Of a stretch of DNA of 64,000 nucleotides, positions 6,701 through 22,777 are shown in pieces. The DNA comes from a virus (lineage: Duplodnaviria; Caudoviricetes): the IMG/VR virus record IMGVR_UViG_3300009082_000959; one strand, written 5' to 3'. Under the pieces are notes generated by a model. The model had not been told where the DNA came from. It did not search any database and saw only the letters and a program-made list of their open reading frames with translations. The position numbers and the translations under genes are program-made. The first letter of the stretch is position 1, and every line of letters begins with the position of its first letter.

Positions 6701-7399
6701 TTGGGCAAGTACGAGTTGGATCTTGGTCCAGCATCAAACGCCACCGAACCAACTTATTTCCAAGCTCATCCAAGTGGCAAGGGAACTGTTACCGAGCTTA
6801 CTCACACAAAAACACCTGAAGCTAAGGTTGAGACAATTTCAGAAGTTCATGATGTTATGCGTGATGTAGCAGAGTCAGGTCCTCGTAATGTTCGTGAAGC
6901 CGCTGCTCTATTACAGGAAGCAATTGTTAAGGGTGCTTTCTCGTCTGCCGATGTGGACGGCTTAGTTGCAGAGGGTAAGGTTGATGCTGCTGCTGCCGCT
7001 TATTGGAAGAAATACTTTGCTATGGCTCCCGATTCAAATAATTTTGGAGCGGAACTAAGCAAGGAATTTGCTACCAAGAAGAAGGCATCAGAGGATACCA
7101 ATTATAAGGTTAAGCTTCGCAGAGCTTATGACATTGGTCTCATGGCACAGGAAAAGGGAATGATAGGTGAAACCCGTGCATCACTTGATACCTATGTTGA
7201 TGAGGTTATGCAGTTTGATGACGCTGCATTTGAATCAACCAAGCGTATTGTTGCTGGTATGAGCGGCCGTAGTAAGAAGTCGTCTCTTCCAAGGGTTGGA
7301 GCTGATGCAGCTAATGAAGCTATGAATGTTACTGCCAGCTCAGATGTTGCTCCTGTTGTAAGTTTGACAGACCAACTCGGTAGCTTGGGTTGGAAGTAA
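3725..7399 (+). CDS. Prohead protease-scaffold fusion protein
   Basis: Start moved to ATG 3725 (GAGGAG RBS). The N-terminal domain has NKNGDIF..EL, KP...KDH (His, 4133) and AVSMG (Ser, 4286), as in HK97-type prohead proteases, then CxxC/CxC. The long coiled-coil/low-complexity C-terminal part is scaffold-like. Lies upstream of the MCP. Confidence 0.75.
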   Translation: MFKKLGENFDFSSSSLLEPKQALQDTEIAARFVKMAKKLRRIAPKAKDFVYGDAIIMHSAEASLIDLNTGKPILNKNGEPVQGCFEDFINKKGVKSVRWISKDGIKPYKNKNGDIFSEAELLKAYKKWIGKPLCKDHISDSVDGIRGIIIDTYYDSKFKRVRALFALDRKNYGDLARKVESGYATAVSMGTAVGRAVCTECGNVAVTEKEYCNCIRSHANYGEINLDLSPLELSLVVNGADGLAHVRNVIASMNNYVETKQARICELVNDRCVNPTELQSIADSLSDMQTKISGLLGLTKKADLGEDVAALREISKMEESLNDPEKSEETKEKLKKRIHDLEIQLDRAGEEQKQEKTWPPVRPGPVPSLPSSMDGDASDLGKPSTTTFNGFAEPNLRYASLEGDKQGALSVELGLLRSKIDKMQDSLNVLNTKVSKEENIMNSARLRARAKARRAYWLGGGGINEPTPGQPKYEKDPMAEKVRDSEDKQMVGEPLETGSEGLHPGDEEKLRDAGRNGLNLSKAELKERALKRRGYFQGGGGINEPTPGQPKYEKDPMAENVRDKEDKQLETYDMGGTDGTVPGDMEIKKTLLRAKLRAKFVKVADRTGGINKAASRWEVYAGDKMILTATGKEIFDDQLEGSWDYLSSRDYGKDVIAAIRSDGFDRVAYLLKGAADPMPADPLAGDPLAGLPAAAPAPDAAPPAAEAPAEPKKEEGGVKEKVDSALGEMEEAIESVRSAVTEGGEKLVDIEVKVDEDAKGEGKDSTPVAALTAAERSELMELHALLNESADELALISEALESNKSDRRVVNAAYQALSDAQIILEAKKKKVKDDEEEDKEDGKGFFGKKDKKDEDKDDKKDKKDEDKDDKKEDKDEKKDKKDAKKDKKDEDKEDEKESKAQKLLNDALRVRSENRAALLSKMAEPELKDMVKEKVNTEIKKELEGGLPADDAMLDDSGCLGCTDDVVESDESAKLARRKAREELVANAAKSLLGKYELDLGPASNATEPTYFQAHPSGKGTVTELTHTKTPEAKVETISEVHDVMRDVAESGPRNVREAAALLQEAIVKGAFSSADVDGLVAEGKVDAAAAAYWKKYFAMAPDSNNFGAELSKEFATKKKASEDTNYKVKLRRAYDIGLMAQEKGMIGETRASLDTYVDEVMQFDDAAFESTKRIVAGMSGRSKKSSLPRVGADAANEAMNVTASSDVAPVVSLTDQLGSLGWK
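5045..7399 (+). CDS. Nested in-frame scaffold protein (predicted internal translation start)
   Basis: AAGGAGGAGAATATTATG: strong SD a few nt before the in-frame ATG at 5045; codon style appears more GC-rich downstream. Confidence 0.6.
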   Translation: MNSARLRARAKARRAYWLGGGGINEPTPGQPKYEKDPMAEKVRDSEDKQMVGEPLETGSEGLHPGDEEKLRDAGRNGLNLSKAELKERALKRRGYFQGGGGINEPTPGQPKYEKDPMAENVRDKEDKQLETYDMGGTDGTVPGDMEIKKTLLRAKLRAKFVKVADRTGGINKAASRWEVYAGDKMILTATGKEIFDDQLEGSWDYLSSRDYGKDVIAAIRSDGFDRVAYLLKGAADPMPADPLAGDPLAGLPAAAPAPDAAPPAAEAPAEPKKEEGGVKEKVDSALGEMEEAIESVRSAVTEGGEKLVDIEVKVDEDAKGEGKDSTPVAALTAAERSELMELHALLNESADELALISEALESNKSDRRVVNAAYQALSDAQIILEAKKKKVKDDEEEDKEDGKGFFGKKDKKDEDKDDKKDKKDEDKDDKKEDKDEKKDKKDAKKDKKDEDKEDEKESKAQKLLNDALRVRSENRAALLSKMAEPELKDMVKEKVNTEIKKELEGGLPADDAMLDDSGCLGCTDDVVESDESAKLARRKAREELVANAAKSLLGKYELDLGPASNATEPTYFQAHPSGKGTVTELTHTKTPEAKVETISEVHDVMRDVAESGPRNVREAAALLQEAIVKGAFSSADVDGLVAEGKVDAAAAAYWKKYFAMAPDSNNFGAELSKEFATKKKASEDTNYKVKLRRAYDIGLMAQEKGMIGETRASLDTYVDEVMQFDDAAFESTKRIVAGMSGRSKKSSLPRVGADAANEAMNVTASSDVAPVVSLTDQLGSLGWK
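5075..5500 (+). repeat. Two-copy intragenic repeat (~80 aa) RxxYxxGGGGINEPTPGQPKYEKDPMAExVRD
   Basis: Near-identical DNA at ~5101-5170 and ~5338-5407. Confidence 0.9.
6200..6420 (+). repeat. Low-complexity K/D/E tract (KKDKKDEDKDDKK) in the scaffold
   Basis: Tandem aag/gac/gat codons. Confidence 0.9.
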
Positions 7400-7427
7400 A
7401 TAATATATAGCACATTGCAGAATTCAT

Positions 7428-7457
7428 AGGAGGAGCGGTAAAACGCTCCTCCTTTCT
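7428..7457 (+). terminator. Probable intrinsic terminator after the protease/scaffold gene
   Basis: AGGAGGAGCG-gtaaaa-CGCTCCTCCT perfect 10-bp stem followed by TTCT. Confidence 0.7.
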
Positions 7458-7474
7458 CCTAATAGAGAAATAAA

Positions 7475-7645
7475 ATGAACATTGATGGTTTAATTGCGTG
7501 CTTAGAGTTTAATTTAGAGTTGCAAAACCTTAGGAAGATTGGATTATCAGAGGAAGAGATAGAGGGTTTCTTTGATTTCAATTGGTGCTCCGATAAGGAC
7601 ATAATAAATTCTCTCTTGGAATTGGTAAAAGATGATGATAACTAG
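7475..7645 (+). CDS. Small hypothetical protein (56 aa; not in the ORF track)
   Basis: MNIDGLIACLEFNLELQNLRKIG...DDDN*; fills the gap and overlaps the next start. Confidence 0.5.
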   Translation: MNIDGLIACLEFNLELQNLRKIGLSEEEIEGFFDFNWCSDKDIINSLLELVKDDDN

Positions 7646-8927
7646 CGACGAGATACTAAACAAATTGGCTGGTATTCTGAGTGTTGCCATAGAACCGCCA
7701 CCAGAAGAAGAGGAATTTATAGAAGTAGAGCCGGAACAAATAATTGGTCCTGCTGACGAAGAATCCAATCAAAAAACAATCGACATCACAGAAGATGAAA
7801 AGAGCATAAAAGTTCCACTAGATGACCTTTCTTGGTCAGACCCAAGAGCTGGGTCACCTGATTGGGTTGCAAGTAATCATCCCTATGTTTATTTGCGTGG
7901 CACTGGAGCACAATATCTTGGCTATTTAAATCCAGCCAATTCAAAAACATCTGATCAATTAGTTAAGCAAGTCTTGAATAAAAACCCCGAACTGTATTAT
8001 GAGTGGGAAATAGATAAGGCCGAACCAAAGGCCGGCCAAGACGCAGCTAGTTGGAAAAAAACAGCATTGGATAATTTGATTAAATCAAATCCGCAATATG
8101 CTTTAATTTTGGGTGTTTTCCAGGATAGATTACAGGACACGCAACTTGATAAAGAAATGCTTGGGAATTTATTTAAGAATGCAATTGCAAGCGAAAGCAA
8201 GAACTATTCGAATATTTATGAGATGTTTCCAGGCGTATTGCACAACAGAATGCAGGAATTAGTTAAGACAATAAAATCATCGTATCCCGATTTATATGCT
8301 TCTCTTATTGCTGGGACAGAGTGGGAATATAGACTTGCCCCTGGAACGACTGCTCCAGAACAAAAAAACAAACTAAGCTCAAGAGAGCCAGCTAGAGGTT
8401 CATATGAGTGGATGGCCCAAAATTACCCACACACTTATTTGCGTGGACAAAATACAATGAAACATGGATTTATTCGCGAGAAACAGGATCCAAAAATCAT
8501 TCAACCGTTGATGGACACAATAGTTAAAGAAAATCCAGATAAATACTTTGCTTGGCATTTAAATCTGGTTGGTGGGCAGCCAAGAAAAAGGGATAGTAGC
8601 GCGATTAATTTCAAAGATTGGTTGCGTCCGGCGATATCTTCCATAGTTGATAAGAGCCCCTACGGCGCACTAGTGTATGATGTGACTAGGTTCAAGAATG
8701 AGTCTGCACCGTATCTGGAAAAATTATGGAATAATCTACAAAATATTGCAAATAATAGGTTTGAACAGGGTTTGGATCCATATCCTGGTCAAATAGCTGG
8801 CAGTATGAGGAAATTGGCCGGAAGAATGGCAGTAGTTCGACCTGATTTATATATTCAGCATGTAATTGGAACACGATTTGAGGACAAGGATTTCACAGAT
8901 CGCGCTAAACAAAACTTGAAACAATAG
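7632..8927 (+). CDS. Hypothetical protein with two internal repeats
   Basis: 431 aa; repeat GSxxWxAxNxPxxYLRG...V(K/L)xNP(E/D)xY(Y/F)xW occurs twice. Confidence 0.8.
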   Translation: MMITSDEILNKLAGILSVAIEPPPEEEEFIEVEPEQIIGPADEESNQKTIDITEDEKSIKVPLDDLSWSDPRAGSPDWVASNHPYVYLRGTGAQYLGYLNPANSKTSDQLVKQVLNKNPELYYEWEIDKAEPKAGQDAASWKKTALDNLIKSNPQYALILGVFQDRLQDTQLDKEMLGNLFKNAIASESKNYSNIYEMFPGVLHNRMQELVKTIKSSYPDLYASLIAGTEWEYRLAPGTTAPEQKNKLSSREPARGSYEWMAQNYPHTYLRGQNTMKHGFIREKQDPKIIQPLMDTIVKENPDKYFAWHLNLVGGQPRKRDSSAINFKDWLRPAISSIVDKSPYGALVYDVTRFKNESAPYLEKLWNNLQNIANNRFEQGLDPYPGQIAGSMRKLAGRMAVVRPDLYIQHVIGTRFEDKDFTDRAKQNLKQ

Positions 8928-8937
8928 GAGAATAAAA

Positions 8938-9420
8938 ATGTCACAGTCTGGAGAAGAGATGATTGCGGGACTTTCGAAACTTTTGGACAGTAAAGTGGTA
9001 ACAAAAACAGCTTCTACAAAGGTAGAAACACAGAAAGTTCCCAAAAAGAAGGCAAACGTAATAAGCATATTGAAAGAACTTTCTAAATTAGCATCAACAC
9101 TTGATGAGTCTGGAGCATGGGTTGCTGCTCAACTGGTTGATGATTCTATAACCGCGATTTCATCGAACATGGACGAAGACGAAGATCCCACAGAGATTTT
9201 TGAGGAAGAACTACCAGTCAGTGGTAACGAAGAAGGAATGGGGTCTAGGATGGAACGCACCTTACAGGATGATGGCCAGCCGCCACAAGAAATGACTCCA
9301 GAAGGACTTGGAATGAGTGATTTCAATGAAGCCGGTGGGACGGTGCATGAAGACAAAATGGACGCACTATTCCGCGATCCAGCTTTCCGCGCAAAAGTAA
9401 AAGAATTTTTGGGCCAATAA
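8938..9420 (+). CDS. Acidic hypothetical protein, probable head-associated
   Basis: AGGAG RBS; VTKTA and LASTLDESG motifs. Confidence 0.8.
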   Translation: MSQSGEEMIAGLSKLLDSKVVTKTASTKVETQKVPKKKANVISILKELSKLASTLDESGAWVAAQLVDDSITAISSNMDEDEDPTEIFEEELPVSGNEEGMGSRMERTLQDDGQPPQEMTPEGLGMSDFNEAGGTVHEDKMDALFRDPAFRAKVKEFLGQ

Positions 9421-9435
9421 TCAAGGAGAAGTAAG

Positions 9436-10128
9436 TTGCTTAAACTTATTCAAATCGGACAGTCATTACCTGTTAGTTTCCCAGTAGACCCAACTGCGCA
9501 GTTTCAGCCAGGACAAATTGCGCAACTTAAAGTTCTTGGAAACGAAGTTGTGTGCGGTGTTTCTGATGGAACTGCTCCATTTGGAATTATAGATGAAATA
9601 AATACATCTGCTTTTACTGCCCCAGTGAGAGATGAGGTTGTCGTAATATCCACCGTTGGAATGAATGATGGATACGGAAGATATGTGTCTATCATAGAGT
9701 CTATGAAAAATTTGAGATTTTCCAACATAGTTAGAAGTAGTTTTAGTTGCGATGTAGAGGGCTTAATACTAAATGATGTGAATGGTTTGGTTATTGCGCC
9801 AGCAGGAACACCACTTAATTATGACTACGATGGTGATGGGGTTCTCGATTCAATTAGGGTTATTTGCACATATATTTATAGGATAGCCAATATACCAGGA
9901 GACAACACAACGATAGGTAGCGGAAGAATGACAATCTGGTTTCAGAGAGGTATATTTGAAACCGATCAATATGACACACGGGCAGCATATGTCGTTGGTG
10001 CAGTTTTGTTTTGTAATGCAGAAGGATATCTAACCACTAATCAATTAACACCACAACATCCTGGTTTTGCTATGGTAACTGGACCCCCAACAGGTCTTAA
10101 TAATACATTAGAATTTTTGTTTTACTAG
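9436..10128 (+). CDS. Capsid decoration/cement-like virion protein
   Basis: TTG start with AAGGAG RBS; beta-rich; GIFETDQYD...YVVGAVLFCNAEGYLT resembles cement-type proteins. Confidence 0.5.
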   Translation: MLKLIQIGQSLPVSFPVDPTAQFQPGQIAQLKVLGNEVVCGVSDGTAPFGIIDEINTSAFTAPVRDEVVVISTVGMNDGYGRYVSIIESMKNLRFSNIVRSSFSCDVEGLILNDVNGLVIAPAGTPLNYDYDGDGVLDSIRVICTYIYRIANIPGDNTTIGSGRMTIWFQRGIFETDQYDTRAAYVVGAVLFCNAEGYLTTNQLTPQHPGFAMVTGPPTGLNNTLEFLFY

Positions 10129-10138
10129 TGGATTTATT

Positions 10139-10870
10139 ATGATTTTTAAAATTTGTCCTCATTGTGGCGTCCAAAAAGACGAAAATGAATTTGGAAAAAA
10201 TAAAAACAGACGTGATGGCCTACAAGGTTATTGTAAAATTTGTAGAAAGCAACAGTATGAGGAAAATAAAGAAGAAATTTTAGAATGTAATAGAAAATTC
10301 TATGAAGAAAATAAAGAAATGATTTCCGCAAGAAACAAAGATTGGCGCGCAAAAAATCCAGAAAAAGTTAAAGCAAGAAAAAAACATTATCGCGAAACAA
10401 ATAAAGAAAAAATTGCTGTGGGAAACAGATGCTATCGCACAGAGAACGCAGAAAAAATTAAAACACACTATAAATCATATTACGAACAAAATACAGATAT
10501 GCTTAAAACAAAAAGCAGTCTATACAAAAAAACACATCCAGAAAAGATACGCGAACAAACAAGAAAACGACGCGCCATGAAACGATCAGTTAATGAAAAT
10601 TTTACCGCACAAGATGAGCTACTTGTTTTTGAAGTTTTTGGCAATCGGTGTGCGAATTGTGGTTCGATAGAAAATTTATGTATTGATCATTTTTACCCCC
10701 TTTCGGCTGGAAACGCCTTAACTATCAATAATGCGTGTTTATTATGTGGCCATTGTAATTGTTCCAAACGAAATAGTGATCCAAAATGTTTCTTTACCGC
10801 AGATAAATATAATGAAATTACACAACTAATGTCAAAAGCGATAGAACTCAATTGGAGACAAAATGTTTGA
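10139..10870 (+). CDS. HNH homing endonuclease
   Basis: CPHC/CKIC N-terminal zinc motifs, K/E-rich helix, CANCG...IDHFYP...NACLLCGHCNCSK. Confidence 0.9.
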   Translation: MIFKICPHCGVQKDENEFGKNKNRRDGLQGYCKICRKQQYEENKEEILECNRKFYEENKEMISARNKDWRAKNPEKVKARKKHYRETNKEKIAVGNRCYRTENAEKIKTHYKSYYEQNTDMLKTKSSLYKKTHPEKIREQTRKRRAMKRSVNENFTAQDELLVFEVFGNRCANCGSIENLCIDHFYPLSAGNALTINNACLLCGHCNCSKRNSDPKCFFTADKYNEITQLMSKAIELNWRQNV

Positions 10871-11297
10871 ATTTGATGATGGGCTTTTGTTTAAATCAAT
10901 AGCTTCGTTGATTAGTGACGAAGCAAGTCGCATCGTGTCACTTGGGCTAGCCTGTCACGCAGATATGAAAAATTGGCTGGACCACTCAATTGGCGATTTG
11001 AACCAACACGATAGGGACACTGCACTAGGTGAATTAGCAGAAACGCATAAGACTCTTTCTGCAATTTGGCTTCCCGGCGACTTTGAAAAAATAGCAATAG
11101 TAGAAGAAGAAGAAAAAATAGAAGAAGTTCCGGAAAAAACAAGTGAAACAAAAACGATTGTTGATAATAATATGTCAATAATTCGTTCAGGTCTTACTGG
11201 AATTGCATATAAACTTGGTAGTTCGGGCAACCATAAGGCGGCCTATCTGATCGAAAGAGCGTTATTTGATATAGAAAATATTATTGACCGTAAATAA
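10863..11297 (+). CDS. Hypothetical protein, probable head-associated
   Basis: GGAGA RBS; C-terminal IAYKLGSSGNHKAAYLI helical motif. Confidence 0.75.
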   Translation: MFEFDDGLLFKSIASLISDEASRIVSLGLACHADMKNWLDHSIGDLNQHDRDTALGELAETHKTLSAIWLPGDFEKIAIVEEEEKIEEVPEKTSETKTIVDNNMSIIRSGLTGIAYKLGSSGNHKAAYLIERALFDIENIIDRK

Positions 11298-11309
11298 TTG
11301 GAGACAACA

Positions 11310-13508
11310 ATGAAACACATAGGATTTAGCGAAAGCACTGTTATGGGAGAATACGCAAGAATAGCGAGTGAGCAAGGACTCATTAAGGTTGCTGATATTC
11401 AGTTTGGAGAGCCAGAGATAAAAACGGATACAAGGTGGTCTCCATCTATGTCTGTGGATGACTACACTGACTATGTTCTTAAAAATGTATTTAAACTAGA
11501 TACATCTGTTGCTCCAACAATTCAGTCGGCACAACTATTTCCACAATTATTGGTCAAATACGAACAGTATCTCCGCAGTGTTGTTTCTGCACAGGTTGGT
11601 GCGCTGTCTGGTAGAGAAGATCGCGCTGCCGCTCACAAATTTCATTCTGATGTAAGAAAGGCAATTGGCAATAAGGTATCAGAATGGTATAAACTTAATA
11701 AATTACCAGTAGCGCAGAGCGAAGTTTCTTTTATTGTCCCGGCTCAAAAATTATATTCAGCAATAGTTGAGGGCATTGCCCCAATTAGCCAAGAAGCAAA
11801 TGACGGTGGTGCAAACCCACTGACACCTCATATGCAACGTCTTAACAGTACATTTGCAAATCTTATGAAGCAGTATGGTAACGATCAGGCAAAGGTGAGA
11901 CCACTATACAACAAAAAAGTTGATGAAATGATGAAATCATTAGAGAAATTTAAAAGTAATCCCGCCAATATACCTGTGCTAAAACAATTCGAGAGTTCTG
12001 CCAGACAAATTGGAATAGATGTAGACAAAAAGAAATCCAGCAAACTTGATATTGATTTATCCAAGCGAGCCAAGGGTAATTCTGGCGGAGTTTATGATGT
12101 TTCTGGCGAAACCGGAGAACAATTGATAGATTCTGCTCACCCAGGCAAAATGAGAACAGAACTAACCAGCAAAACCGATGAAAATTTGGTAGAAACAATC
12201 ATAGAACAGCAGGTTCGTGACATCGAAGTTGCAAACAGTATTCCAAAGGGAACATACGCTGCCCTAGTAAGTCTTGTCGCTAAACTCAATAAGATGGGGT
12301 ATTCAAAGCAGGCAGAACCGCTAAAGAAAATGATCGTTAAATTAAACGGCTTTAATATGGTGGATGTAGAACTTATATCTCTGGCTATGAAACTAAAAGA
12401 CGGTGGCCTTAAAAAAGAGGCAGTAAAAGTAATACGATTACTATCAAAAAAAGCACAGGGAACCCAGGAATCGGTTAATGAGACACTACCTAAGGTTTCC
12501 GGAAATCTATCAAGTCTAGTGTCTTCAATGAATGCCTTGGGACTTGGAAACAACCAGGAATTCGCAGGTATTTTAGATGAATTAAAGAGAGACCTTACTA
12601 ATATACAGAACATACAAGCTGTAGCAGCGATGGATAGAAAAACGGCAGATGGGGCTCAAAATTCACTTAAAGAGATATTAGCAAACCTCAATAAAGCACA
12701 ATCAGTAATTGTTGTTGCATCAAGGTCTGGCGAATTTACTGGTATGCCCGGTGATATAAGTAGTGTAAGCAAAAGTATAGGTTCCACAATTTCATCTGTT
12801 GTTGCTGCATCAGTGGCGGTTAGGTCATTTGCAGAGACCCTGCCGCAAGAAGTTGCACAGCCAACCGAACAAGAAAAGAAAAAGATACCGTTCATAAAGC
12901 AGTTGTTGTCTGAAGAGAAATTTGCCAATGAGTGGGGTAAGAGATTTAATGCACAATTAGAGGAAATAAGGGAAAAGAATGATGTCTCCGAACAGTATCT
13001 TCCTGATGAAATTAGTGCACTGCGAGCAAAAACCGATGGAAGTTGGGATGAGCTAAAACGAAGCCTAAGCAATATAGTTAAGGTATGGCGATCTAAAGGA
13101 AAGTGGAATGATTTTATTAAATACATAGATGATGTTATGAAGAATGTTAATATGGATTTTAAGGACAAGGACAGTCCCTCTGACACAGTTCCCGATGTAG
13201 AACAAGAAACAAAGATATCAGGTGACCGCAGCGCAGAGGATATTAGAAGATATAATCAAATGATTCATGATCGCGCATTGGAGCTAACAAAGTGGTCTTA
13301 TGCAAATTCCGCAAAATTAATCGGAGTTGATTTGAGGAATTCTGGCATTACCCCAGCACAAGCACGGCAATGGAGAGATAAACTATATGAAGACGCTTTT
13401 AGTTTCATAAGGGATGTGACGCCGTATGTGCTGGATGCTGCTGCAAGCCCGCTTCAAGACTTAAGACAAGATTTTACTGATTTTGTTAAAGAGAAATATA
13501 AGAAATAA
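11310..13508 (+). CDS. Large probable internal head protein
   Basis: Start moved to ATG 11310 (GGAGA RBS); shares an AHP...VE..EQQ...PxG domain with 15960-16541 and the scaffold. Confidence 0.75.
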   Translation: MKHIGFSESTVMGEYARIASEQGLIKVADIQFGEPEIKTDTRWSPSMSVDDYTDYVLKNVFKLDTSVAPTIQSAQLFPQLLVKYEQYLRSVVSAQVGALSGREDRAAAHKFHSDVRKAIGNKVSEWYKLNKLPVAQSEVSFIVPAQKLYSAIVEGIAPISQEANDGGANPLTPHMQRLNSTFANLMKQYGNDQAKVRPLYNKKVDEMMKSLEKFKSNPANIPVLKQFESSARQIGIDVDKKKSSKLDIDLSKRAKGNSGGVYDVSGETGEQLIDSAHPGKMRTELTSKTDENLVETIIEQQVRDIEVANSIPKGTYAALVSLVAKLNKMGYSKQAEPLKKMIVKLNGFNMVDVELISLAMKLKDGGLKKEAVKVIRLLSKKAQGTQESVNETLPKVSGNLSSLVSSMNALGLGNNQEFAGILDELKRDLTNIQNIQAVAAMDRKTADGAQNSLKEILANLNKAQSVIVVASRSGEFTGMPGDISSVSKSIGSTISSVVAASVAVRSFAETLPQEVAQPTEQEKKKIPFIKQLLSEEKFANEWGKRFNAQLEEIREKNDVSEQYLPDEISALRAKTDGSWDELKRSLSNIVKVWRSKGKWNDFIKYIDDVMKNVNMDFKDKDSPSDTVPDVEQETKISGDRSAEDIRRYNQMIHDRALELTKWSYANSAKLIGVDLRNSGITPAQARQWRDKLYEDAFSFIRDVTPYVLDAAASPLQDLRQDFTDFVKEKYKK

Positions 13509-13526
13509 TTAAACTAGGATTATATT

Positions 13527-15332
13527 ATGCAAAAAATTTCTTGGACCTGGCGAGATATAGTTACGGAGCTTGGAGTTGGGGCCGTCACTGACCTGGCAAT
13601 TGCTGGCGGTGCCGCAGCTCTTGGTCTTGGCACTGGTCCAATAGGATGGACTCTATTGGCTGGAGCAGGAATTACAGCGGCAGTTTGGTATTTTACGCGC
13701 CAAATGGACGACAACTTACCAGACCTCATAGATAGACTTGAAGACCTTGATCCAAAACCAGAGTATGAACTCAAAATAAATAATTGGATTGACACACTAA
13801 AATCAATACTGCCCACAATTTCTGCTCCACCAACCACTACTGATGTTGCACAAAGAGGACAACTCAATGCTCAACAGTATGTTGCTATGAGAAATTTGCT
13901 TGCTTATATGGAGCAATTAGAGAAAGAGTGGAGAACAGATGTATATCCAAATGGACTTACGGATATCGTTTTTGATGCAGGTCAGGTAAATTATACTATA
14001 TCTGAAACCCTAAATGCTATAAAGACTTCTATCACAAAAATGCGTGAAGCTGCAAAACAAGATGCTGACACACTATTGAACCAAATTAAAGAAAAATCAA
14101 AGATTGATTACAAGCAATTATCCACAGATATAGTTGGTTTATATGACCAATTGACCAGTTTATATGGAAAGGCACCAGAGTGGGAAACAAATGAAAGAAA
14201 TTTGGAGGCAGCTTTTAATTTTGCAAAAAATATAGTTGGCCGAGGCGAGGAATTCAAAGCATTCACACAGCAGGATTTGACTGCTATGTTGCCCCTGATG
14301 AATAAAGTTAAGGAATTGTTTTCTCGTGCCCTACAAGCAAAACAACCTGCTCAAAAAACATCATCTCACCAGGCTTTATCTAAACGGGCACTTATATTGG
14401 GTGATGGTAGTCGTATTTCAGACACAGAATCTCCAATTCCACATGGCCAGTTAAGGCAGGCACCACTTACCTCAAAATCTCCAACTGTGGCAAAATTACA
14501 AATGGCGCTTAATGTAATAAACGAAAAGATTGGCAGTCCAACAAAATGCATAGTTGATGGGCTGTATGGAAAACAAACAGCCGGCGCAGTTGTTGAGTTA
14601 ATGGGAAAAAGCAAAGCAGTTGCAGATATGGTTGCACCTCTTGATGCAGAACAAATATCTAATGTCTCCGCCATGAATCAAAATCCAGGCAATATAAAAG
14701 ATTTGTTTGACGCGTTTTATTCAATTGCCCTACAATTAAAAGAGAGCGGCGGTAAAGGCACAGAGCAACCAGCAGCACAGTGTAATCCAGAAAAATTCAA
14801 TCCAACTCCGGCAGAAATGTTGGCTTGTTTAAAGGAAGAATTGCAAGTAGAGGAACCAAATACTGGTAAAAGAATGTATGCCTATGATTGGATGAGAAGT
14901 CTTGGTGTAAGTGATTCCACAATGATTTCTTGGGTCACGAGTTTATTTCCGCCAAGTGATTATAGACCAAAGGACTGGTCTCCTTCGGTTTTGGTATCTC
15001 ACGTAAAATCAGAGTTTGCTAGGGCTCAAAAAAACAAAAACCCAACACAATTGGGAAATATATCAATACCAAAGGATGATAATAGCCTAATAAGATATAT
15101 GAAAAATTATTTTGAAGTAATAGACCCACCAACCAATGAAAAAATGGGAGTATATTTCTGGCTACAAGGAAAAGGATTGGATAAATACATATCATTAAAA
15201 ATGATGAATGATTTCATAAACAAACAACAAGGTGGCCAGAGAATTTGGAACACAGCAACAACTCCAAGACAATTCACCTCTTTTGTTGAATCACTTATGG
15301 GAGGCCGAGAAGGTGCAGCACGTATTATCTAA
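13527..15332 (+). CDS. Probable virion/ejection protein with N-terminal glycine-rich hydrophobic segments and a peptidoglycan-binding-like domain
   Basis: AGGAAALGLGTGPIGWTLLAGAG; VAKLQMALN...VDGLYGKQTAGAV resembles PG_binding_1. Confidence 0.6.
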   Translation: MQKISWTWRDIVTELGVGAVTDLAIAGGAAALGLGTGPIGWTLLAGAGITAAVWYFTRQMDDNLPDLIDRLEDLDPKPEYELKINNWIDTLKSILPTISAPPTTTDVAQRGQLNAQQYVAMRNLLAYMEQLEKEWRTDVYPNGLTDIVFDAGQVNYTISETLNAIKTSITKMREAAKQDADTLLNQIKEKSKIDYKQLSTDIVGLYDQLTSLYGKAPEWETNERNLEAAFNFAKNIVGRGEEFKAFTQQDLTAMLPLMNKVKELFSRALQAKQPAQKTSSHQALSKRALILGDGSRISDTESPIPHGQLRQAPLTSKSPTVAKLQMALNVINEKIGSPTKCIVDGLYGKQTAGAVVELMGKSKAVADMVAPLDAEQISNVSAMNQNPGNIKDLFDAFYSIALQLKESGGKGTEQPAAQCNPEKFNPTPAEMLACLKEELQVEEPNTGKRMYAYDWMRSLGVSDSTMISWVTSLFPPSDYRPKDWSPSVLVSHVKSEFARAQKNKNPTQLGNISIPKDDNSLIRYMKNYFEVIDPPTNEKMGVYFWLQGKGLDKYISLKMMNDFINKQQGGQRIWNTATTPRQFTSFVESLMGGREGAARII

Positions 15333-15963
15333 ACGAGCCTTTGAAATAGAGGATTTATGGCAACAGATTAGTTCTGTTTGGCACACTAACGAGGGTTTTT
15401 GTGAAAATCTGTTTAGGATTTCATCATACCTTTTGCCATTTGTTCCTGGTTTGGGGTGGAGTGTTTTTATACTTGAAAAAATTGCTGCGTTTTTTGGATT
15501 TGGTTTAGCAGACTTGGGTGCAGCAATTGATAGGTTTGCTGGGTGGGAACCTAGTAATAATTTAAACATTGGTCAGAGCGAGTTTTCTTCTGTTTTGGTA
15601 GATTTCATAACCACTCAATCTAAATCTGTAAATGCTTCTAAAAACCTAGAGCAAATAACAAAAACTGCTTGGTTTGGTGGTCTAATAAAACTAATCCAAT
15701 TATTGCCAAGAGCAATTGTTCCACTAACGAATGCAGTCAAGTTTATGCTACTGACATTTGGATTTTCAAAGGTTGGTGAAATATATTCTGCCGTAAGTGG
15801 AACAACAAAGGCCCCGGGTGCCTTGATGTTGGAAAACTCAAAACCCCAAAAAACAGAATTGCTATCAGAAGAGAACATTAGTGCGTTTAAAGACCTTATA
15901 TCAAACCCACTCAATGTTGTAAAACCACTAACAGACCTATATAAAGTAATGGAGACAAAATGA
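15313..15963 (+). CDS. Hypothetical protein with hydrophobic segments
   Basis: GTG start at 15313 preceded by GGAGG; LSKRA near the N-terminus. Confidence 0.7.
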   Translation: MQHVLSKRAFEIEDLWQQISSVWHTNEGFCENLFRISSYLLPFVPGLGWSVFILEKIAAFFGFGLADLGAAIDRFAGWEPSNNLNIGQSEFSSVLVDFITTQSKSVNASKNLEQITKTAWFGGLIKLIQLLPRAIVPLTNAVKFMLLTFGFSKVGEIYSAVSGTTKAPGALMLENSKPQKTELLSEENISAFKDLISNPLNVVKPLTDLYKVMETK

Positions 15964-16541
15964 GTATTACTAAAAACGAAATCATGGATGAATTTTTCAG
16001 ATTAGCAAAAGAACAGGGATTCGCTGATGAAGTTGAACCAAATCCTTATCAAGAGGACGAAAAGGTTATACGTGAAAAGAGAGTTAAAACTCCTGAAAAA
16101 AATATCATAGAAGAAGCTCATCCGGAACCAATTTATGTTGCAGAGGCTTTTGGAGATGGTGGTTTGGTTGAAAATCAAGTTGAACAGCAAAAGAAATTAA
16201 TTGATATGATAAATAAAATGCCAACAGGTAATCTCACTGCTCATTATGCATCAACCGCAATAGAGTTGCTTAAAATTGCCAACAAATGCGATGACTTGGG
16301 ACACACAAAGGCTGCTGATTTAATTACCACTGCGGCAGAAAACTTACTTGAAATGGCTGAAAAAAATGATCTTGGATTTGAATGCCCTGGGTGTGAGAAA
16401 CCAGAAGACCAATGCACTTGCGACAAATCAAATGATGCTGAGTATTGTGATAAGTGCGACCGAAGTATGGAAAATTGCATTTGCGATAAAGAATCAGGCA
16501 ACGAGAAAGCCTTCCCTTTTACCAAGGCTCCTATCGTTTAA
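15960..16541 (+). CDS. Probable head protein (partial paralog of 11310) with a Cys-rich tail; upstream partner of a predicted -1 frameshift
   Basis: GGAGA RBS; AHP domain; CPGC..CTC / CDKC..CIC; ends with the slippery site C CCT TTT. Confidence 0.75.
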   Translation: MSITKNEIMDEFFRLAKEQGFADEVEPNPYQEDEKVIREKRVKTPEKNIIEEAHPEPIYVAEAFGDGGLVENQVEQQKKLIDMINKMPTGNLTAHYASTAIELLKIANKCDDLGHTKAADLITTAAENLLEMAEKNDLGFECPGCEKPEDQCTCDKSNDAEYCDKCDRSMENCICDKESGNEKAFPFTKAPIV

Positions 16542-16585
16542 GCGCTAGGGTAAGTCCGCTATTAAAGAAAGCCTGGATAGGAAGT
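16514..16585 (+). promoter_or_regulatory. Predicted -1 programmed ribosomal frameshift signal
   Basis: X XXY YYZ heptamer C CCT TTT (16514-16520) in the correct phase; stem TCCTATC(16529-35)/GATAGGA(16576-82) with inner pairings starts 8 nt downstream; the -1 frame is open from 16490 to 18283. Confidence 0.6.
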
Positions 16586-16591
16586 GCTATT

Positions 16592-18283
16592 TTGGCCGGC
16601 GCTCGTGCTTTTTTAAAGGGAGTTGGAGCAAAAGGTGCACAAAAACTTGGAGTCAATACTGCAAAGACCATAGAAAATGCAGGACCAGGTGTTTTAAAAA
16701 CACTAACCAATTGGTGGGATGGCGGAATGAAACAAGCCGCCAAAGAAGCACAGGAGTTTGCCGGGAAATCATCACAAGAAATGATTCAGGCTCTTGACCC
16801 TGGATTGTTGTCTCGTGTAAGTTCTGAAACCGCAACTAGGCTAAATGCATCCTTGGCTAGCGCAAGACAAAAAATGGCAGAAACGGCGGTGAGACTTTCT
16901 GAGGAACTAACAAGAATACCAGGTGCTCCCAGATTATTGCCAGGTGTTTCTATGTCAGAGGCCAATGCTGCCAAACAGACCATTAAAAATACTGCTAATT
17001 CTGTGGCAAAACAACTAGACGAAGTAAAAAACAAAGCTGGTGCTCTTGAAGAACAAATGGAGCATATGGTTGGTGAAAACTCAAAAGATGCAGTTCAAAT
17101 GGCAACTTTTATGCGAAGTGAACTAAATTCTCTTGCATCAAAACAAGTAAAGTTAGAAAATCAATTGGTTGGGCTTGAACACGCAAAAAAGATTGTTGGA
17201 AAACTCTCTCATGTGTCTGAACTTGATAATCTACTAATTCAGAAAAAATACGACGAAATTCTAAAAAGAATGTATTCCTATGACCCAAATATTTCAAAAT
17301 GGACATCTGACTTAATGGGGCACGATGTAGCGGCTCAAGTTGAAGCAGCACGTCATTCACTGTCTGCTGCAAGCAAAAACTTAAACAAACCAAAAGCTCT
17401 TTTACAAGAATATTTGGATATGATTAATAGGGGCGATAAAGTAAATGCCGATGCCTTTAGAACAAATCCGCACAATGCCTCTGTTTTGCTAGACATAACC
17501 AAGAGACGCCCTGATTTAATGGCACAAGTAACCAAGGGAGAAATTACAAGGGTTCCGCTTAGGCAATCTTTGGTTGGTCTCACTCGTGGTGATACGGTAA
17601 AAAGGCTTGGTCTTGGTGCTGCTGGTCTAACTGCTACTGGATTTGGCGCAGTGAAAGCTTTTGACTGGTTTGGTAAAAACGATCCAGCACAAACAGCAAA
17701 AGACAGCACCTTGGTTCGTGGTTCTATTTCTTCACTACGAGTAAAGGAACCAGGCGCTTCCGTTCTTAGGTCAGCACAAAATGCCGTCACAAGAATAGGC
17801 GAAATAGCAAACAACACCAACACTCAATTGGCCCAAGAAACCACTTCTGCTTCCGCCGCAGGCAATTTTGTTACCGGAATTTCTTCAGAGCTTTCAATTT
17901 TAGTTAAGGCTCTGGAACAATGGGACCTAGTTGAACAAAATGCAGAGGACCCCCAACAAGCAAGAGAAGTTGGAGAAGATTTGGCTGAATTTGCAAACGG
18001 AATAGCTAGCAGTTTGGGTGAGTTAAATACACAAGTTGCCAGTGGTTCTGATAGCAATCCGTCAGTTGGTTCCGAGAATTTATCAAAAATTCAGGGGTTT
18101 TTAAATATACCAGTGACAGGGAAATTAGATGAACCCACCGCAACTGGATTAAAAAACCTAGAGAAGCAGTTTAATGCGAAGACAAATGACACTGCTTTTA
18201 CTGGGGCTTTAATAAAAAACGATGGAAGTGTGATATCTTATGATAATTTAATCAAAGCATATCAAAAATTACAGAATTATTAA
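16592..18283 (+). CDS. Probable virion protein (coiled-coil, glycine-rich segment, C-terminal PG-binding-like domain); possibly made as a frameshift fusion
   Basis: Only a TTG start; LSKIQGFLNIPVTGKLDEPTATGL resembles PG_binding_1. Confidence 0.7.
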   Translation: MAGARAFLKGVGAKGAQKLGVNTAKTIENAGPGVLKTLTNWWDGGMKQAAKEAQEFAGKSSQEMIQALDPGLLSRVSSETATRLNASLASARQKMAETAVRLSEELTRIPGAPRLLPGVSMSEANAAKQTIKNTANSVAKQLDEVKNKAGALEEQMEHMVGENSKDAVQMATFMRSELNSLASKQVKLENQLVGLEHAKKIVGKLSHVSELDNLLIQKKYDEILKRMYSYDPNISKWTSDLMGHDVAAQVEAARHSLSAASKNLNKPKALLQEYLDMINRGDKVNADAFRTNPHNASVLLDITKRRPDLMAQVTKGEITRVPLRQSLVGLTRGDTVKRLGLGAAGLTATGFGAVKAFDWFGKNDPAQTAKDSTLVRGSISSLRVKEPGASVLRSAQNAVTRIGEIANNTNTQLAQETTSASAAGNFVTGISSELSILVKALEQWDLVEQNAEDPQQAREVGEDLAEFANGIASSLGELNTQVASGSDSNPSVGSENLSKIQGFLNIPVTGKLDEPTATGLKNLEKQFNAKTNDTAFTGALIKNDGSVISYDNLIKAYQKLQNY

Positions 18284-19151: not shown

Positions 19152-19904
19152 ATGATAGATAGAGATACATTGTATAGACTATATGATGTTGAAGAAAAAA
19201 CGACATATGAAATTGCAGACATTTTTTCGGTTGATCGCTCCTCTGTGTGTCTTTGGTTAAAGAAATATAATATTAAAACAAGAATTGCCAAAAGAGATGA
19301 AGCAGTATTGGATAGAAAACTTACAGAAATACAAAAAAATTTTTTAATTGGCTCAATTCTTGGTGACGGACATATTACAGACAACAGAAAAACACCAGTA
19401 TATACAACAAGCCATAGTGACAAACAAAAAGAATATATCTACTGGAATTGGAAAATTTTTGGTGATTTGGGAAATGAACCTAAACTATTTAAAACCATAA
19501 ACAAAACAAATAATAAGACGTATTCATTTTATAATTTTAGAACAAAGTGTATCCCAGAGTTAAAAATATTTAGAGAAATATTTTACACAGAAAGCAGAAC
19601 AAAGATTATTCCAGAAAATATTAAAGATATTATTGTTAGTCCGTTTTCTTTTGCTGTGTGGTTAATGGAAGATGGTTCTTTTGCGAGAAGAGGAAAGCAA
19701 ACAATTTTATGCACTGATTGTTTTACATATCGAGAGCACGAAATACTTAAAGATGCTATTGAATGTAATTTTAAACTTAAAGCAAATATAATAAAATACA
19801 ACGATAGACATTTTAGGTTAAGATTTGGCGCAAGTGAAGCGCAAAAGATAAAAGAATTACTGGAAGAACACATAATAGAAAGTATGAAGTATAAAATTTT
19901 TTAG
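19152..19904 (+). CDS. Free-standing LAGLIDADG homing endonuclease
   Basis: FLIGSILGDGHI and FAVWLMEDGS motifs (LAGLIDADG_2 type); N-terminal HTH. Confidence 0.9.
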   Translation: MIDRDTLYRLYDVEEKTTYEIADIFSVDRSSVCLWLKKYNIKTRIAKRDEAVLDRKLTEIQKNFLIGSILGDGHITDNRKTPVYTTSHSDKQKEYIYWNWKIFGDLGNEPKLFKTINKTNNKTYSFYNFRTKCIPELKIFREIFYTESRTKIIPENIKDIIVSPFSFAVWLMEDGSFARRGKQTILCTDCFTYREHEILKDAIECNFKLKANIIKYNDRHFRLRFGASEAQKIKELLEEHIIESMKYKIF

Positions 19905-19914
19905 TCGTGAGCCT

Positions 19915-19970
19915 GTCGGTAACAACCGACTTAAAATTTTAAAATAACTCGGCCGGTTTTCCGCTCGGGT
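19915..19970 (+). promoter_or_regulatory. Two hairpins in the leader of the major capsid gene
   Basis: GTCGGT-aaca-ACCGAC (19915-30) and ACTCGGcCGG-tttt-CCGcTCGGGT (19947-70), just before the AGGAG RBS. Confidence 0.4.
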
Positions 19971-19989
19971 AAAACATAGGAGTTTCTAT

Positions 19990-21015
19990 ATGAGTCTTTT
20001 TAATACCCAAGGTGAGCTAAATGCGCTTAACGATCGTGACGCACTTAGCCAAATCGTAAAATATGCTTCGATTATCCAAAATAATCAATCAGCAAGTCAG
20101 GGTCTTGCCGGCCGTCCATCTTTTACTGAAGAGCAAAAAGATGAGCTGCTTCGCAAGGCTTTGATGTCAACTGAAGGTAAGGTTGCTCTAGGTCAGGCTA
20201 TGGCTAACCCAATCCGCCGAAACTTAGATTATCAGGGTGTAGGCCGTCGGGTTCTTGTTGTAGACCCACTACCACAAGGTGCTTTGCCTGTTTACGACCG
20301 TGATATCGATGTTTCAGCCGTAGTGATTTCAAGCAACGGTTCAGCTCCAGAATCTCGCGTGTTCTCAGATCGCGTGACCATTCCTGAGTTTGAAGTTGTT
20401 TCTAATCCAACCGTTCGTATTGCTGAAGTAAAGCGACGTCGGTTTAACGTCATTGATCGTGCGCAGCAAAAAGCTCGCCAAGAAATTCAGGCCCAAGAAG
20501 ATGCTAACATTTTCGCGGCTCTAGATTTCGCTGGTGACCTAAGTCTTGGTGGCGAAAACACCGCACAGGACATCGCTGACGCTGGTCTACTTAAGCGTGA
20601 CCTCTCAGAAGTCAAAGTTCAGGTTGATCGTTGGGACCTAGTGACCTCAAAGTTCCTCATGAATATCGTTGAGTTTAACGACATTCTAAACTGGGGCTCA
20701 GGTGGTGGTCAGGCTGCCGGTTCTGGTGGTGAGTTGGACATGGTAAGCCAACGCGAAATTCTCCAGACTGGTCTTTTCGCTCACATTTGGGGCGCTGACA
20801 TTATCGTAAGCAAGGTAGTTCCAGCGGGCACAGTGTTCGGTGTTGCGGATCCAGAGTTTGTTGGTGTGATGCCTATCAGGCAAGATATAGAGGTGCTCCC
20901 CGCAGACGAGCCGAAGCAGCTTAAGTTGGGCTGGGTGGTGAATGAGATCATTGGTATCGGAATTGTGAACCCAAGAGGTGTAAGCGTTGGTCGTAAGAGC
21001 GTGACTGCCGGCTAA
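19990..21015 (+). CDS. Major capsid protein (HK97 fold)
   Basis: 341 aa; LGQAMANPIRRNLDYQGVGRRVLVVDPLPQGALPVYDRD, PEFEVVSNP.VRI.E, IDRAQQKARQEIQAQED, G.IWGADIIVS..VP.GTVF; strong RBS and a terminator downstream. Confidence 0.88.
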   Translation: MSLFNTQGELNALNDRDALSQIVKYASIIQNNQSASQGLAGRPSFTEEQKDELLRKALMSTEGKVALGQAMANPIRRNLDYQGVGRRVLVVDPLPQGALPVYDRDIDVSAVVISSNGSAPESRVFSDRVTIPEFEVVSNPTVRIAEVKRRRFNVIDRAQQKARQEIQAQEDANIFAALDFAGDLSLGGENTAQDIADAGLLKRDLSEVKVQVDRWDLVTSKFLMNIVEFNDILNWGSGGGQAAGSGGELDMVSQREILQTGLFAHIWGADIIVSKVVPAGTVFGVADPEFVGVMPIRQDIEVLPADEPKQLKLGWVVNEIIGIGIVNPRGVSVGRKSVTAG

Positions 21016-21049
21016 TTGCCTGATTTAGATAGTAAAATAGAATAGCATT

Positions 21050-21082
21050 AAGGCGACCCACTGGGTCGCCTTTTTGTTTTTT
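21050..21082 (+). terminator. Rho-independent terminator after the MCP
   Basis: AAGGCGACCC-act-GGGTCGCCTT followed by TTTGTTTTTT. Confidence 0.92.
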
Positions 21083-21244
21083 GTGTTTCGTGACGTCTGA
21101 TTCGCTCATTTTTTTGGTTCATCTGCTGGCAGACCTTGTTTAAAATAATTTAAAATTTTTCAACAATGTGCTTTAAATTTTTATTGGCTTGGCGTATTAC
21201 TATAGACAGCAGGGAATCTTTTCCCACCTAACAATGGAGACATT

Positions 21245-22777
21245 ATGAAAAAGTTTACGGACACAGAGATTTTAAATGAAATGAAAAAAATATTTGAAGA
21301 ACATGGATCTATACCTTCCATAAAAGAGTGGAGGAAACTAGGACGCATTTCGGCAGATGCAATTCTACGAGCATTCGGAACTTGGACAAAAGCGTGGCAA
21401 GCGGCAGGGTTGCTAAGCAGTGAGGGTCCTGTATATCAGATTAAAGAAAAAATGATTATTGAAATACAAAAAGCATTCATTGAATACAAAAAGGCCGGAG
21501 AAGCGTTTGGCGTTCAAGAATTAGTAAGAGCGTCTGGTCATTCTCGCCCAACCGTAGTAAAATATTTTGGGTCAGTATCAAATTTATTGAGTGCCGCCAA
21601 AATAGATATAAACAAGCAAATCACCAAAGATGACCTTATTAATGATTTTTTGGCAACCCACAAGAAACTAAGCAGAATACCTACAGCAAAAGATATAGAA
21701 AATAATTGCGAACACGCAAAATCAACTTTTCTTAGAGTATTTGGTTCTCTTGATGCGGTTATCTCTGCTGCTGGCCTTGAAAAACCAGAGGTAAAAGATG
21801 GTTTATCTGATGATGAATTATTGGAAGATCTTAAACGACTTCATGCAGAATTATCTCATACGCCAACCAATGAAGACATAATGATTCACGGAAAATTTAG
21901 TCCAAATGCTTATTCGAGAAACTTTGGTTCTTTCTCTAATGCTTTGGCTAAAATTGGTCTCTCTGCCGCCACACAAACAAAAAGTAATCAGGTTTGCCGT
22001 GTATGTGGGATTAACACAGTCTCAATGATATCACATGTGTCAAAAGATCATCCCGAAGAATTTAAAAAGCAAGAGCAGTCTGTAGTAGAATTATATCGTT
22101 CTGGACTAAGCTCAAAAAAGATTTGTGCTCGCGATGATCATATATTTATTAGTTCAACCAGCGTTGCCCGTATTATTAAAAAATACACTACGGCAGAAGA
22201 ACGAGAATTGCTTAGAAAACAGAAAATTGAAACTACTTTAAAAAAGGATTACGCCGATGGCAAATATAATTGGGTAAACGAATTAAATTCTAATCGAAAT
22301 ATATCCTCTGAGGCGCGACAAAAGAATTCCGACGGACTTAAAGAGGCTTATTTGAGTGGTGATCGCGAACCATGGAATAAAGGCGCCACCAAAGAAACGG
22401 ACCCGAGATTGGCTCTGGCTGCCATTAATACAAGTATATCTATGAAAACTCTATTTAAAGCAGGAGAGATAGACAAGAAAATAGGACCAGAAAGCAGTAG
22501 ATGGATCGAAGACCGTGGAAAGGTTGCAAAGAGATATAGGTTGGGCCTTAGTTTTAATTATGAAGAACGCTCTAATATTAAGAAAAGAGCCAACTATTGC
22601 TGTCAGCACTGCGGAATTTCACAAGAACAATTGGAAGAAAGCAACCAGACTTTGGAATGCGACCACATTATAGCTATTACAGATGGCGGGCTTAGAGATT
22701 GGGAAACCAATGGCCAAGCCCTTTGTCCAATTTGTCATTTAAAGAAAACCGCCAGTGATGCAGAAAGGTCAAAATGA
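21245..22777 (+). CDS. HNH endonuclease with N-terminal homing-endonuclease-associated repeats
   Basis: 3-4 repeats of the type xxP(S/T)...FG(S/T)...A...AGL; PWNKG; C-terminal CQHCG...CDHII...NGQALCPICH. Confidence 0.85.
   Translation: MKKFTDTEILNEMKKIFEEHGSIPSIKEWRKLGRISADAILRAFGTWTKAWQAAGLLSSEGPVYQIKEKMIIEIQKAFIEYKKAGEAFGVQELVRASGHSRPTVVKYFGSVSNLLSAAKIDINKQITKDDLINDFLATHKKLSRIPTAKDIENNCEHAKSTFLRVFGSLDAVISAAGLEKPEVKDGLSDDELLEDLKRLHAELSHTPTNEDIMIHGKFSPNAYSRNFGSFSNALAKIGLSAATQTKSNQVCRVCGINTVSMISHVSKDHPEEFKKQEQSVVELYRSGLSSKKICARDDHIFISSTSVARIIKKYTTAEERELLRKQKIETTLKKDYADGKYNWVNELNSNRNISSEARQKNSDGLKEAYLSGDREPWNKGATKETDPRLALAAINTSISMKTLFKAGEIDKKIGPESSRWIEDRGKVAKRYRLGLSFNYEERSNIKKRANYCCQHCGISQEQLEESNQTLECDHIIAITDGGLRDWETNGQALCPICHLKKTASDAERSK

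Follow-up and report, generated by a model that had tools for sequence, protein, structure and literature searches.

We analysed a 64,000-nt stretch of DNA (the window) from an uncultured huge phage (IMG/VR record IMGVR_UViG_3300009082_000959; Duplodnaviria, Caudoviricetes), which belongs to a contig of about 289 kb from a freshwater sediment metagenome. In its head-gene module, a small open reading frame (ORF1) is followed in the −1 frame by a 563-aa ORF (ORF2), and the two very probably form a programmed −1 frameshift cassette with a conserved recoding signal. An initial annotation of this DNA had proposed that a −1 frameshift at C CCT TTT joins the two genes and yields a short and a long form. 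Our results support this proposal: the heptamer was kept as CCCTTTN or TTTTTTY in all 16 loci with the same split arrangement and in all five fused loci with available DNA, a downstream hairpin covaried, and three fused ORFs were colinear with the predicted product. Comparison of the loci demonstrated the signal, nucleotide conservation beyond the needs of both frames, a junction peptide without a start codon, and natural single-ORF fusions.

Reading frames and the recoding signal

ORF1 starts with ATG at 15960 and ends with TAA at 16539-16541, as seen both by direct reading and in the ORF listing, and its final codons are TTC CCT TTT ACC AAG GCT CCT ATC GTT TAA. Direct reading confirmed that an in-phase C CCT TTT lies near the end of ORF1, as the initial annotation had stated. 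That annotation had also described a −1 frame open from 16490 into the 563-aa ORF, a TTG as the only start of that ORF, and a fusion of about 774 aa, and each of these points agreed with the ORF listing and the translated frames. The −1 frame is closed by TAA at 16487-16489 but stays open from 16490 until its stop codon at 18281-18283, and the predicted trans-frame product consists of ORF1 residues 1-187 followed by 587 residues (774 aa). The junction peptide across the slip would read ...AFPF-YQGSYR..., and the bridging peptide from the junction on ...AFPF-YQGSYRLSARVSPLLKKAWIG. TTG 16592 is the sole canonical start of the 563-aa ORF before ATG 16727, the next in-frame ATG, which sits within conserved sequence; no ATG or GTG occurs earlier.

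In-phase X XXY YYZ heptamers with Y = A or T are common in the window (128 per 19,447 codons), and the chance that one falls within the 17-codon overlap is about 11%. Among the window heptamers, the one at 16514 alone leads to a long −1 frame (589 codons vs 62 for the runner-up). Taken by itself, the single-sequence evidence at 16514 is suggestive, not decisive. The features of the locus are listed in Table 1.

Table 1. Features of the frameshift locus and related sites (window positions unless a locus is named)
Feature	Position	Strand	Basis
ORF1, short zero-frame product, 193 aa	15960..16541	+	ORF list
Slippery heptamer C CCT TTT (X XXY YYZ), zero-frame phase	16514..16520	+	direct reading
5-nt spacer ACCAA, heptamer to hairpin	16521..16525	+	alignment of loci
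−1 frame after the slip, 587-aa extension	16520..18283	+	frame translation and alignment
Conserved local hairpin	16526..16556	+	minimum free energy (MFE) structure and covariation
Hairpin outer pairs GGC/GUC	16526-28 with 16554-56	+	
Hairpin middle pairs CCUA/UAGG	16530-33 with 16546-49	+	
Hairpin inner helix	16535-37 with 16542-44	+	
S-P-L-L-K-K-A motif, candidate head-protease processing site	16553..16573	+	conservation, recurrence in neighbours
LSKRA/LSKKA/LLKKA sites	14370-14384, 15325-15339, 12057-12071, 12441-12455, 16559-16573		
AGGAAG and TTG, gene-caller start of the 563-aa ORF, rival independent start	16579..16594	+	direct reading
Best conserved extension core, Gly/Ala-rich hydrophobic stretch ending W-F	17537..17677	+	alignment A3
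C-terminal PG_binding_1-like three-helix domain	18070..18280	+	weak Pfam, profile, model, Atlas lead
Fused-locus heptamer and hairpin	L027 3396-3439; L030 3396-3439; L031 3402-3445; L060 696-739; L061 696-739		

Neither the locus nor ORF1 had a match among deposited phage genomes in DNA and protein searches. Single-protein scans of IMG/VR were also negative, but a profile scan did find relatives. The DNA compared included 16 split loci (the window included), five fused loci, and the L057/L058 pair. In the split loci, the in-phase heptamer took the form CCCTTTC, CCCTTTT, CCCTTTA, TTTTTTC, or TTTTTTT (16/16), and the spacer between it and a conserved GGC was exactly 5 nt in every case. The −1 frame was also open in all 16, running for 455-603 codons where the contig reached the stop and, in the remaining five, continuing to the contig end without one; it opened only 3 nt before the heptamer in L003 and 6-12 nt before it in L021, L020, and L025. 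At the protein level, we collected 76 ORF1 homologues, mostly of about 145 aa and many on contigs of 130-480 kb. In 74 of the 76, the protein ended in P-[FL] followed by 0-12 residues or in F-[FL] followed by 1-3 residues, as expected from CCN-TTN or TTT-TTN just 5' of the stop.

The bases of the heptamer were more constant than coding would demand. At all 18 sites of the CCC type, the third position of the codon before Pro was C and the Pro codon was CCT, although third-position C has a background of 13% and CCT accounts for 34% of Pro codons in the same genes. Only the zero-frame codons CCT TTN are decoded after a slip, so the fixed bases would serve slipperiness and neither protein. The residue encoded at YYZ alternated between F and L among relatives, which is expected if TTN is the kept feature. 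Heptamers of this class, H_HH.U_UU.Y, rank in Escherichia coli with the most efficient −1 motifs that have been measured (PMC4066793). Conservation of the signal beyond the coding needs of either frame was thus seen in the loci, in the protein tails, and at the fixed third positions.

Expression of ORF2 through RNA polymerase slippage on the T run, or through termination-reinitiation at a non-canonical codon past the ORF1 stop, agrees poorly with this pattern, and we consider it very unlikely. Runs of 6-7 consecutive T in L001, L054, and L055 would suit polymerase slippage, but most loci have only 3-4 T (CCCTTT followed by C, A, or T), and transcriptional slippage is known on T runs far longer than that. 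Moreover, an in-phase X XXY YYZ heptamer at a fixed distance from a hairpin fits the needs of the ribosome, not those of RNA polymerase. Reinitiation would be helped by the closeness of the ORF1 stop to the conserved junction motif; however, the window contains no start-like codon between the two.

The protein sequences also pointed to translation across the junction. ORF2 had one detectable close homologue, P0002 (625 aa, 48% identity), whose first 30 residues align to the window −1 frame 5' of the TTG (VPFRGGTYSLSSRVSPLSKQAGIGSA vs LPFYQGSYRLSARVSPLLKKAWIGSA). The upstream neighbour of P0002 is P0004 (177 aa, 51% identical to ORF1), and the two overlap by 37 nt in the same −1 relation. Because their protein sequences overlap, the DNA there must read C CCT TTC. 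The peptide between the heptamer and the TTG was conserved in P0002 and in all relatives.

These observations bear on the possibility that the window carries two separate genes, with the 563-aa ORF initiated at TTG 16592 through AGGAAG and the heptamer incidental, which we judge quite unlikely. The AGGAAG at 16579-84, overlooked in the initial annotation, resembles a Shine-Dalgarno (SD) sequence and is well spaced, 7 nt 5' of TTG 16592; gene callers chose this TTG (P0001), and the L057/L058 lineage truly has separate genes, each ORF2 with an ATG and a ribosome-binding site (RBS). However, the N-terminal motif that is best conserved in the family (S-P-L-x-K-x-A) is encoded upstream of the TTG, and the true ATG in L057 is likewise upstream of this motif, not downstream. 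The TTG and its SD-like sequence are not kept in relatives, several of which are startless for 240 nt (no ATG, GTG, or TTG in the −1 frame of L001, L016, and L020), and independent initiation leaves the conservation of heptamer, spacer, and hairpin unexplained. TTG initiation may nevertheless add some product in the window phage.

In support of the −1 frameshift, the initial annotation had described a long stem-loop beginning 8 nt after the heptamer (TCCTATC 16529-35 with GATAGGA 16576-82, among others). The complementary segments exist, but they do not form a conserved element: 46% of the cells paired over 14 loci, the same as when the 3' partners were slid by 1-3 columns, and this stem was rejected. 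Region 16521-16600 folded no better than dinucleotide shuffles (z = +1.05, and +1.2 for another cut). A smaller hairpin that had been missed starts 5 nt after the heptamer instead, and the zero-frame stop (TAA 16539-41) lies within its loop. Conservation across homologous loci, proposed earlier as a check, was therefore found for the heptamer and for a downstream hairpin, but not for the long stem.

The covariation analysis of the hairpin was run on 14 sequences and then on 19. Across the 19, 94.7% of cells paired and 18 cells were changed on both sides; none of 500 shuffles reached either value, and slid partners paired in 18-64%. Alignments and folds revealed compensatory variants of the middle helix, including CCUA/UAGG, CUCG/CGAG, CUCGU/ACGAG, and CCGAC/GUCGG, together with CCUG/CAGG, CUC/GAG, CCCG/CGGG, and CCUGC/GCAGG. 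A covariance model gave a single window match (58 bits, E 8.5e-11), with the next best in the 64 kb at 14.6 bits, and it found the held-out fused junctions L060 and L061 at 45-46 bits; it had no match in L057/L058, in the more distant arrangements, or in phage G. Within the 5-9 nt past the heptamer where a downstream structure was looked for, this hairpin lies at 5 nt. It would act as a stimulator of the slip, probably with modest efficiency.

Split, fused, and separate relatives

Seven relatives carried a single continuous ORF of 633-801 aa. Three of these, L027, L030, and L031 (643, 751, and 728 aa), were included in a MAFFT alignment, and all three were colinear through the junction with the conceptual −1 fusions. 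Fused ORFs and conceptual fusions shared the junction pattern LPF-x-x-G-[TSA] ... VSP-L-x-K-x-A. These colinear fused ORFs are the strongest argument, drawn from sequence, for a real trans-frame protein.

The five fused loci with DNA (L027, L030, L031, L060, and L061) all retained an in-phase C CCT TTT and the hairpin, here with a 6-nt spacer. Their −1 frame stops immediately, at CCC TTT TGA in four and after one extra codon at TAA in the fifth. With a −1 stop directly after the slip, the long form would be the default and a slip would yield a short ORF1-like form, which suggests a dnaX-like truncating frameshift in the fused relatives.

The existence of fused relatives could also be taken to mean that the split in the window is an assembly or sequencing indel in one continuous ORF. 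We assign almost no probability to this explanation: the 16 split loci come from separately assembled contigs and different samples and have an identical spacer length, a run of 4 T is not error-prone, and the fused loci differ by a clean 1-nt longer spacer and form a distinct, more distant group.

A third arrangement was found in L057 (3380-3470) and identically in L058. There, ORF1 ends ...NKES TAA and is directly followed by an ATG with AAGGAG upstream, and neither heptamer nor hairpin is present at the ORF1/ORF2 boundary. The ORF2 N-terminus is MVKLPDEPLYKEA, with its start upstream of the conserved motif, just before P-L-Y-K-E-A. Homologues with their own ATG and RBS, or without the signal, had been named in advance as speaking against frameshifting; they were confined to the L057/L058 lineage, and 16 split and five fused loci keep the signal. 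The family is thus, by sequence comparison, one of split, fused, and separate forms, with the recoding signal in the first two.

Several points weigh against a −1 frameshift in the window phage. The hairpin is weak (−7.6 kcal/mol in the window and −3.7 to −9.6 in relatives), and when single sequences of its region were folded, shuffles mostly did as well. The outer hairpin arms coincide in part with conserved codons (G-T/S and V-S-P), and the protein may thus explain part of their invariance. No upstream SD-like stimulator was conserved among the related loci compared. The case for the trans-frame protein comes wholly from sequence comparison, and TTG 16592 with AGGAAG permits some independent initiation. 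Finally, ORF2 of L057/L058 has its own ATG and AAGGAG without the signal; the fusion is dispensable there and so is not obligatory for the family.

Cassette proteins and the head module

ORF1 itself matched no Pfam or PHROG family, and ORF2 matched no PHROG family and gave only three sub-threshold, unrelated Pfam matches. A core of ORF1 was conserved (AHPEP..GDGGLVEN..PTG..YA). Its AlphaFold2 (AF2) model was helical with a mean predicted local distance difference test (pLDDT) score of 68; it contained a helix hairpin (91-112 / 116-135), and 10-residue blocks over residues 101-130 averaged above 90. A Cys-rich insert, CPGC..CTC..CDKC..CIC (window 16381-16490), separates this helix hairpin from the slip site. 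It is missing or very different in length among homologues; that of homologue P0023 matches the DnaJ CXXCXGXG zinc-finger family.

An ORF1 profile matched other proteins of the window head region, at 11298-13505 (E 1.5e-8), 8938-9420 (E 3e-4), and 378-734 (E 0.008), and by this comparison ORF1 looks like a shared module of head proteins. In the distant loci L008-L014, an ORF1-like module forms the C-terminus of 445-1178-aa proteins located directly 5' of p229 and the head protein; neither p229 nor these larger proteins matched a Pfam or PHROG family.

In its model, the extension was all helix and had long coiled coils. Both AF2 models were put through fold searches, which returned only generic coiled-coil look-alikes (SMC, tape-measure), none at E <= 0.001, and Atlas searches yielded no more than leads. 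Invariant or near-invariant columns of alignment A3 were G353, W383, and F384, and the Gly/Ala-rich extension core may be membrane-active. For the C-terminal domain, PF01471 was the top match in 5/5 family members at 13-16 bits (window 13.7), below the gathering cut-off of 23; the A4 profile matched solved matrix metalloproteinase (MMP) prodomains (E 2.5e-4 to 4e-3) along a stretch of some 30 residues, and the model has three helices. The −1 ORF of L024 (2832-4196) has a reduced length of 455 aa and lacks the PG_binding_1-like domain usually present at the C-terminus. The initial annotation had interpreted the pair as short and peptidoglycan (PG)-binding-extended forms of an internal head or ejection protein. 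The prediction of two forms was supported and the head-module position would fit an internal head protein, but the PG-binding assignment was weak, below the Pfam cut-off.

The bridging sequence had been described as containing an LKKA motif like that of other head proteins, and this observation held. In S-P-L-x-K-x-A, the P, K, and A were invariant in 16 homologues at 17-52% identity, and LSKRA or LSKKA recurred in the three preceding genes, so that with LLKKA in the extension four consecutive head-module genes carry such a site. In the head region (3710-18283), the pattern [LIVMF]-x-K-x-A occurred at about twice the expected frequency; the tail region showed no such excess. In the extension model, the PLLKKA motif and the junction lie within residues 1-22, where pLDDT was below 50. 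L-x-K-x-A is a possible head-protease site code, and a head-maturation-protease domain is present in the protein encoded at 3710-7399.

The frameshift locus lies two genes upstream of the major head protein (19990-21015; phrog_2522, E 8e-77; 52% identical to Bacillus phage G gp27), with p229 between them. The gene order p736-p601-p243-ORF1/2-p229-MCP (MCP, major capsid protein) was kept in the closest loci, in the parts that each contig covers. In more distant loci, the ORF1-like module forms an internal or terminal part of a larger protein, mostly directly before p229 and the head protein. A tail-chaperone reading of the pair was rejected on the basis of the head-module position and the lack of homology.

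Across the related loci L001-L058, the major head protein was 70-92% identical; identity dropped to 17-50% for ORF1/ORF2. Homing-endonuclease-like genes flank or interrupt the head module (19152-19904, 21245-22777, and 10139-10870): an ORF that by appearance is LAGLIDADG lies between p229 and the head gene (19152-19904), a protein with HNH and HNH_repeat is encoded immediately behind the head gene, and an HNH/endonuclease VII-like one at 10139. Upstream of ORF1, a 243-aa ORF (15232-15963), with GTG 15232 as its start, shares 100 nt with the preceding 601-aa ORF (13527-15332) in a +1-frame overlap, and the LSKRA of the 243-aa protein spans the stop of the 601-aa gene. This overlap was considered as a second frameshift and set aside, because it is in the +1 frame, it is 11-32 nt or absent in relatives, and ordinary starts are called there. 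Given the shorter or absent overlap in relatives, the true start of the 243-aa ORF is probably later than GTG 15232.

The following course of events would account for these findings. Most ribosomes would read ORF1 to TAA and produce the 193-aa helical protein. A fraction would pause at C CCU UUU, with tRNA-Pro on CCU and tRNA-Phe on UUU, over the hairpin 5 nt downstream, and a slip of one base back to CCC UUU would add 587 further −1 codons and give the 774-aa fusion. The ORF1 part could then bring its helical cargo into the prohead, and the head protease could cut P-L-L-K-K-A, freeing a mature protein whose first residue would fall close to the TTG. The helical model, the adjacency to head genes, the module shared with head proteins, and L-x-K-x-A all point indirectly to such a targeting role, and we infer that ORF1 may be a scaffold-like or capsid-targeting module carrying helical cargo into the prohead.

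More tentatively, one cassette (CCCUUUN/UUUUUUY, spacer, and small hairpin) could occur in two opposite wirings across this huge-phage head-gene family. With a 5-nt spacer, the slip would turn a short protein with a scaffold or targeting role into a cargo fusion of 600-800 aa, as in Gag-Pol; with a 6-nt spacer, the fusion would be the default and the slip would truncate it, as in dnaX. A 1-nt change of spacer would thus flip the abundant form, both forms would always be made, and the fusion would later be cut at P-L-x-K-x-A by the head protease. This broader scheme is plausible, and we place it below an even chance.

Significance and comparison with known systems

The cassette would add to the conserved phage frameshifts a large uncultured huge-phage group, with a head protein related to that of phage G, in which a head-module pair uses one. 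Annotation would change as well, since gene callers now begin a 563-aa protein at a TTG that would be a false start and overlook the 774-aa product. The split, fused, and separate versions form a natural series on the short:long ratio and on the gain, rewiring, and loss of a frameshift signal, and the junction peptide with its L-x-K-x-A site offers a handle on protein loading into the capsids of these phages.

Conserved frameshifts in phages are textbook knowledge for tail chaperones, and a small number of capsid, lysin, and polymerase genes also have them. Our literature searches turned up no relevant account of frameshifting in huge or jumbo phages. A survey of phage frameshifts lists tail chaperones, capsids, lysins, methyltransferases, polymerases, and others, and makes no mention of scaffold or internal head-cargo genes (PMC10885494). 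The mechanism proposed here is ordinary −1 programmed ribosomal frameshifting (PRF); what is new is the gene family and its place, a head module in which the shifted gene is neither a capsid gene nor a tail chaperone.

The best-known parallel is lambda G/GT, and conserved −1 PRF in tailed-phage tail genes was described by Xu, Hendrix and Duda 2004 (as cited in PMC10885494). As in lambda, a small ORF has, close to its 3' end, a heptamer at which a −1 slip carries translation on into the overlapping next ORF, and the arrangement is conserved across highly diverged phages and would set a fixed short:long ratio of structural or assembly proteins. However, the window locus is in the head module and not between tail tube and tape measure, its pair matches no chaperone family in Pfam or PHROG, the extension has 587 aa instead of being about as large as G, and the heptamer is CCCUUUY, not GGGAAAG.

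T7 10A/10B and the head protein of Lactobacillus phage A2, whose capsid-gene frameshifts are among the references in PMC10885494, share with the window a −1 PRF in a head gene that gives a C-terminally extended minor form. Unlike in those phages, the shifted gene here is not that of the major capsid protein, which is separate, and what the slip adds is a large protein in its own right, which carries a conserved processing motif.

Of the deposited phages, Bacillus phage G is the one whose major head protein is closest. Its annotation includes a −1 frameshift at A AAA AAG in gp22/gp23, a few genes 5' of the decoration and head genes. The joined coding sequence (19865-21534; L059 5568-7237) extends an amidase-LysM part into a glucosaminidase-like part, and A AAA AAG is in phase three codons before the gp22 stop. 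This amidase/muramidase endolysin pair is part of the lysis cassette (PMC12484599), and gp22/gp23 showed no similarity to ORF1 or ORF2.

Outside phage genes, E. coli dnaX (tau/gamma) resembles the fused relatives, which keep heptamer and hairpin and in which the slip meets UGA, or one codon and then UAA. The window has the opposite polarity, short by default and long by slip; moreover, the dnaX motif is A AAA AAG, whereas the window has no conserved SD-like element and a much weaker hairpin. Retroviral and totiviral Gag/Gag-Pol has no homology to the window proteins, but it offers the same logic of an abundant assembly protein, a minor cargo fusion, and cleavage of the linker, of which incorporation and cleavage would be the predicted counterparts in this phage.

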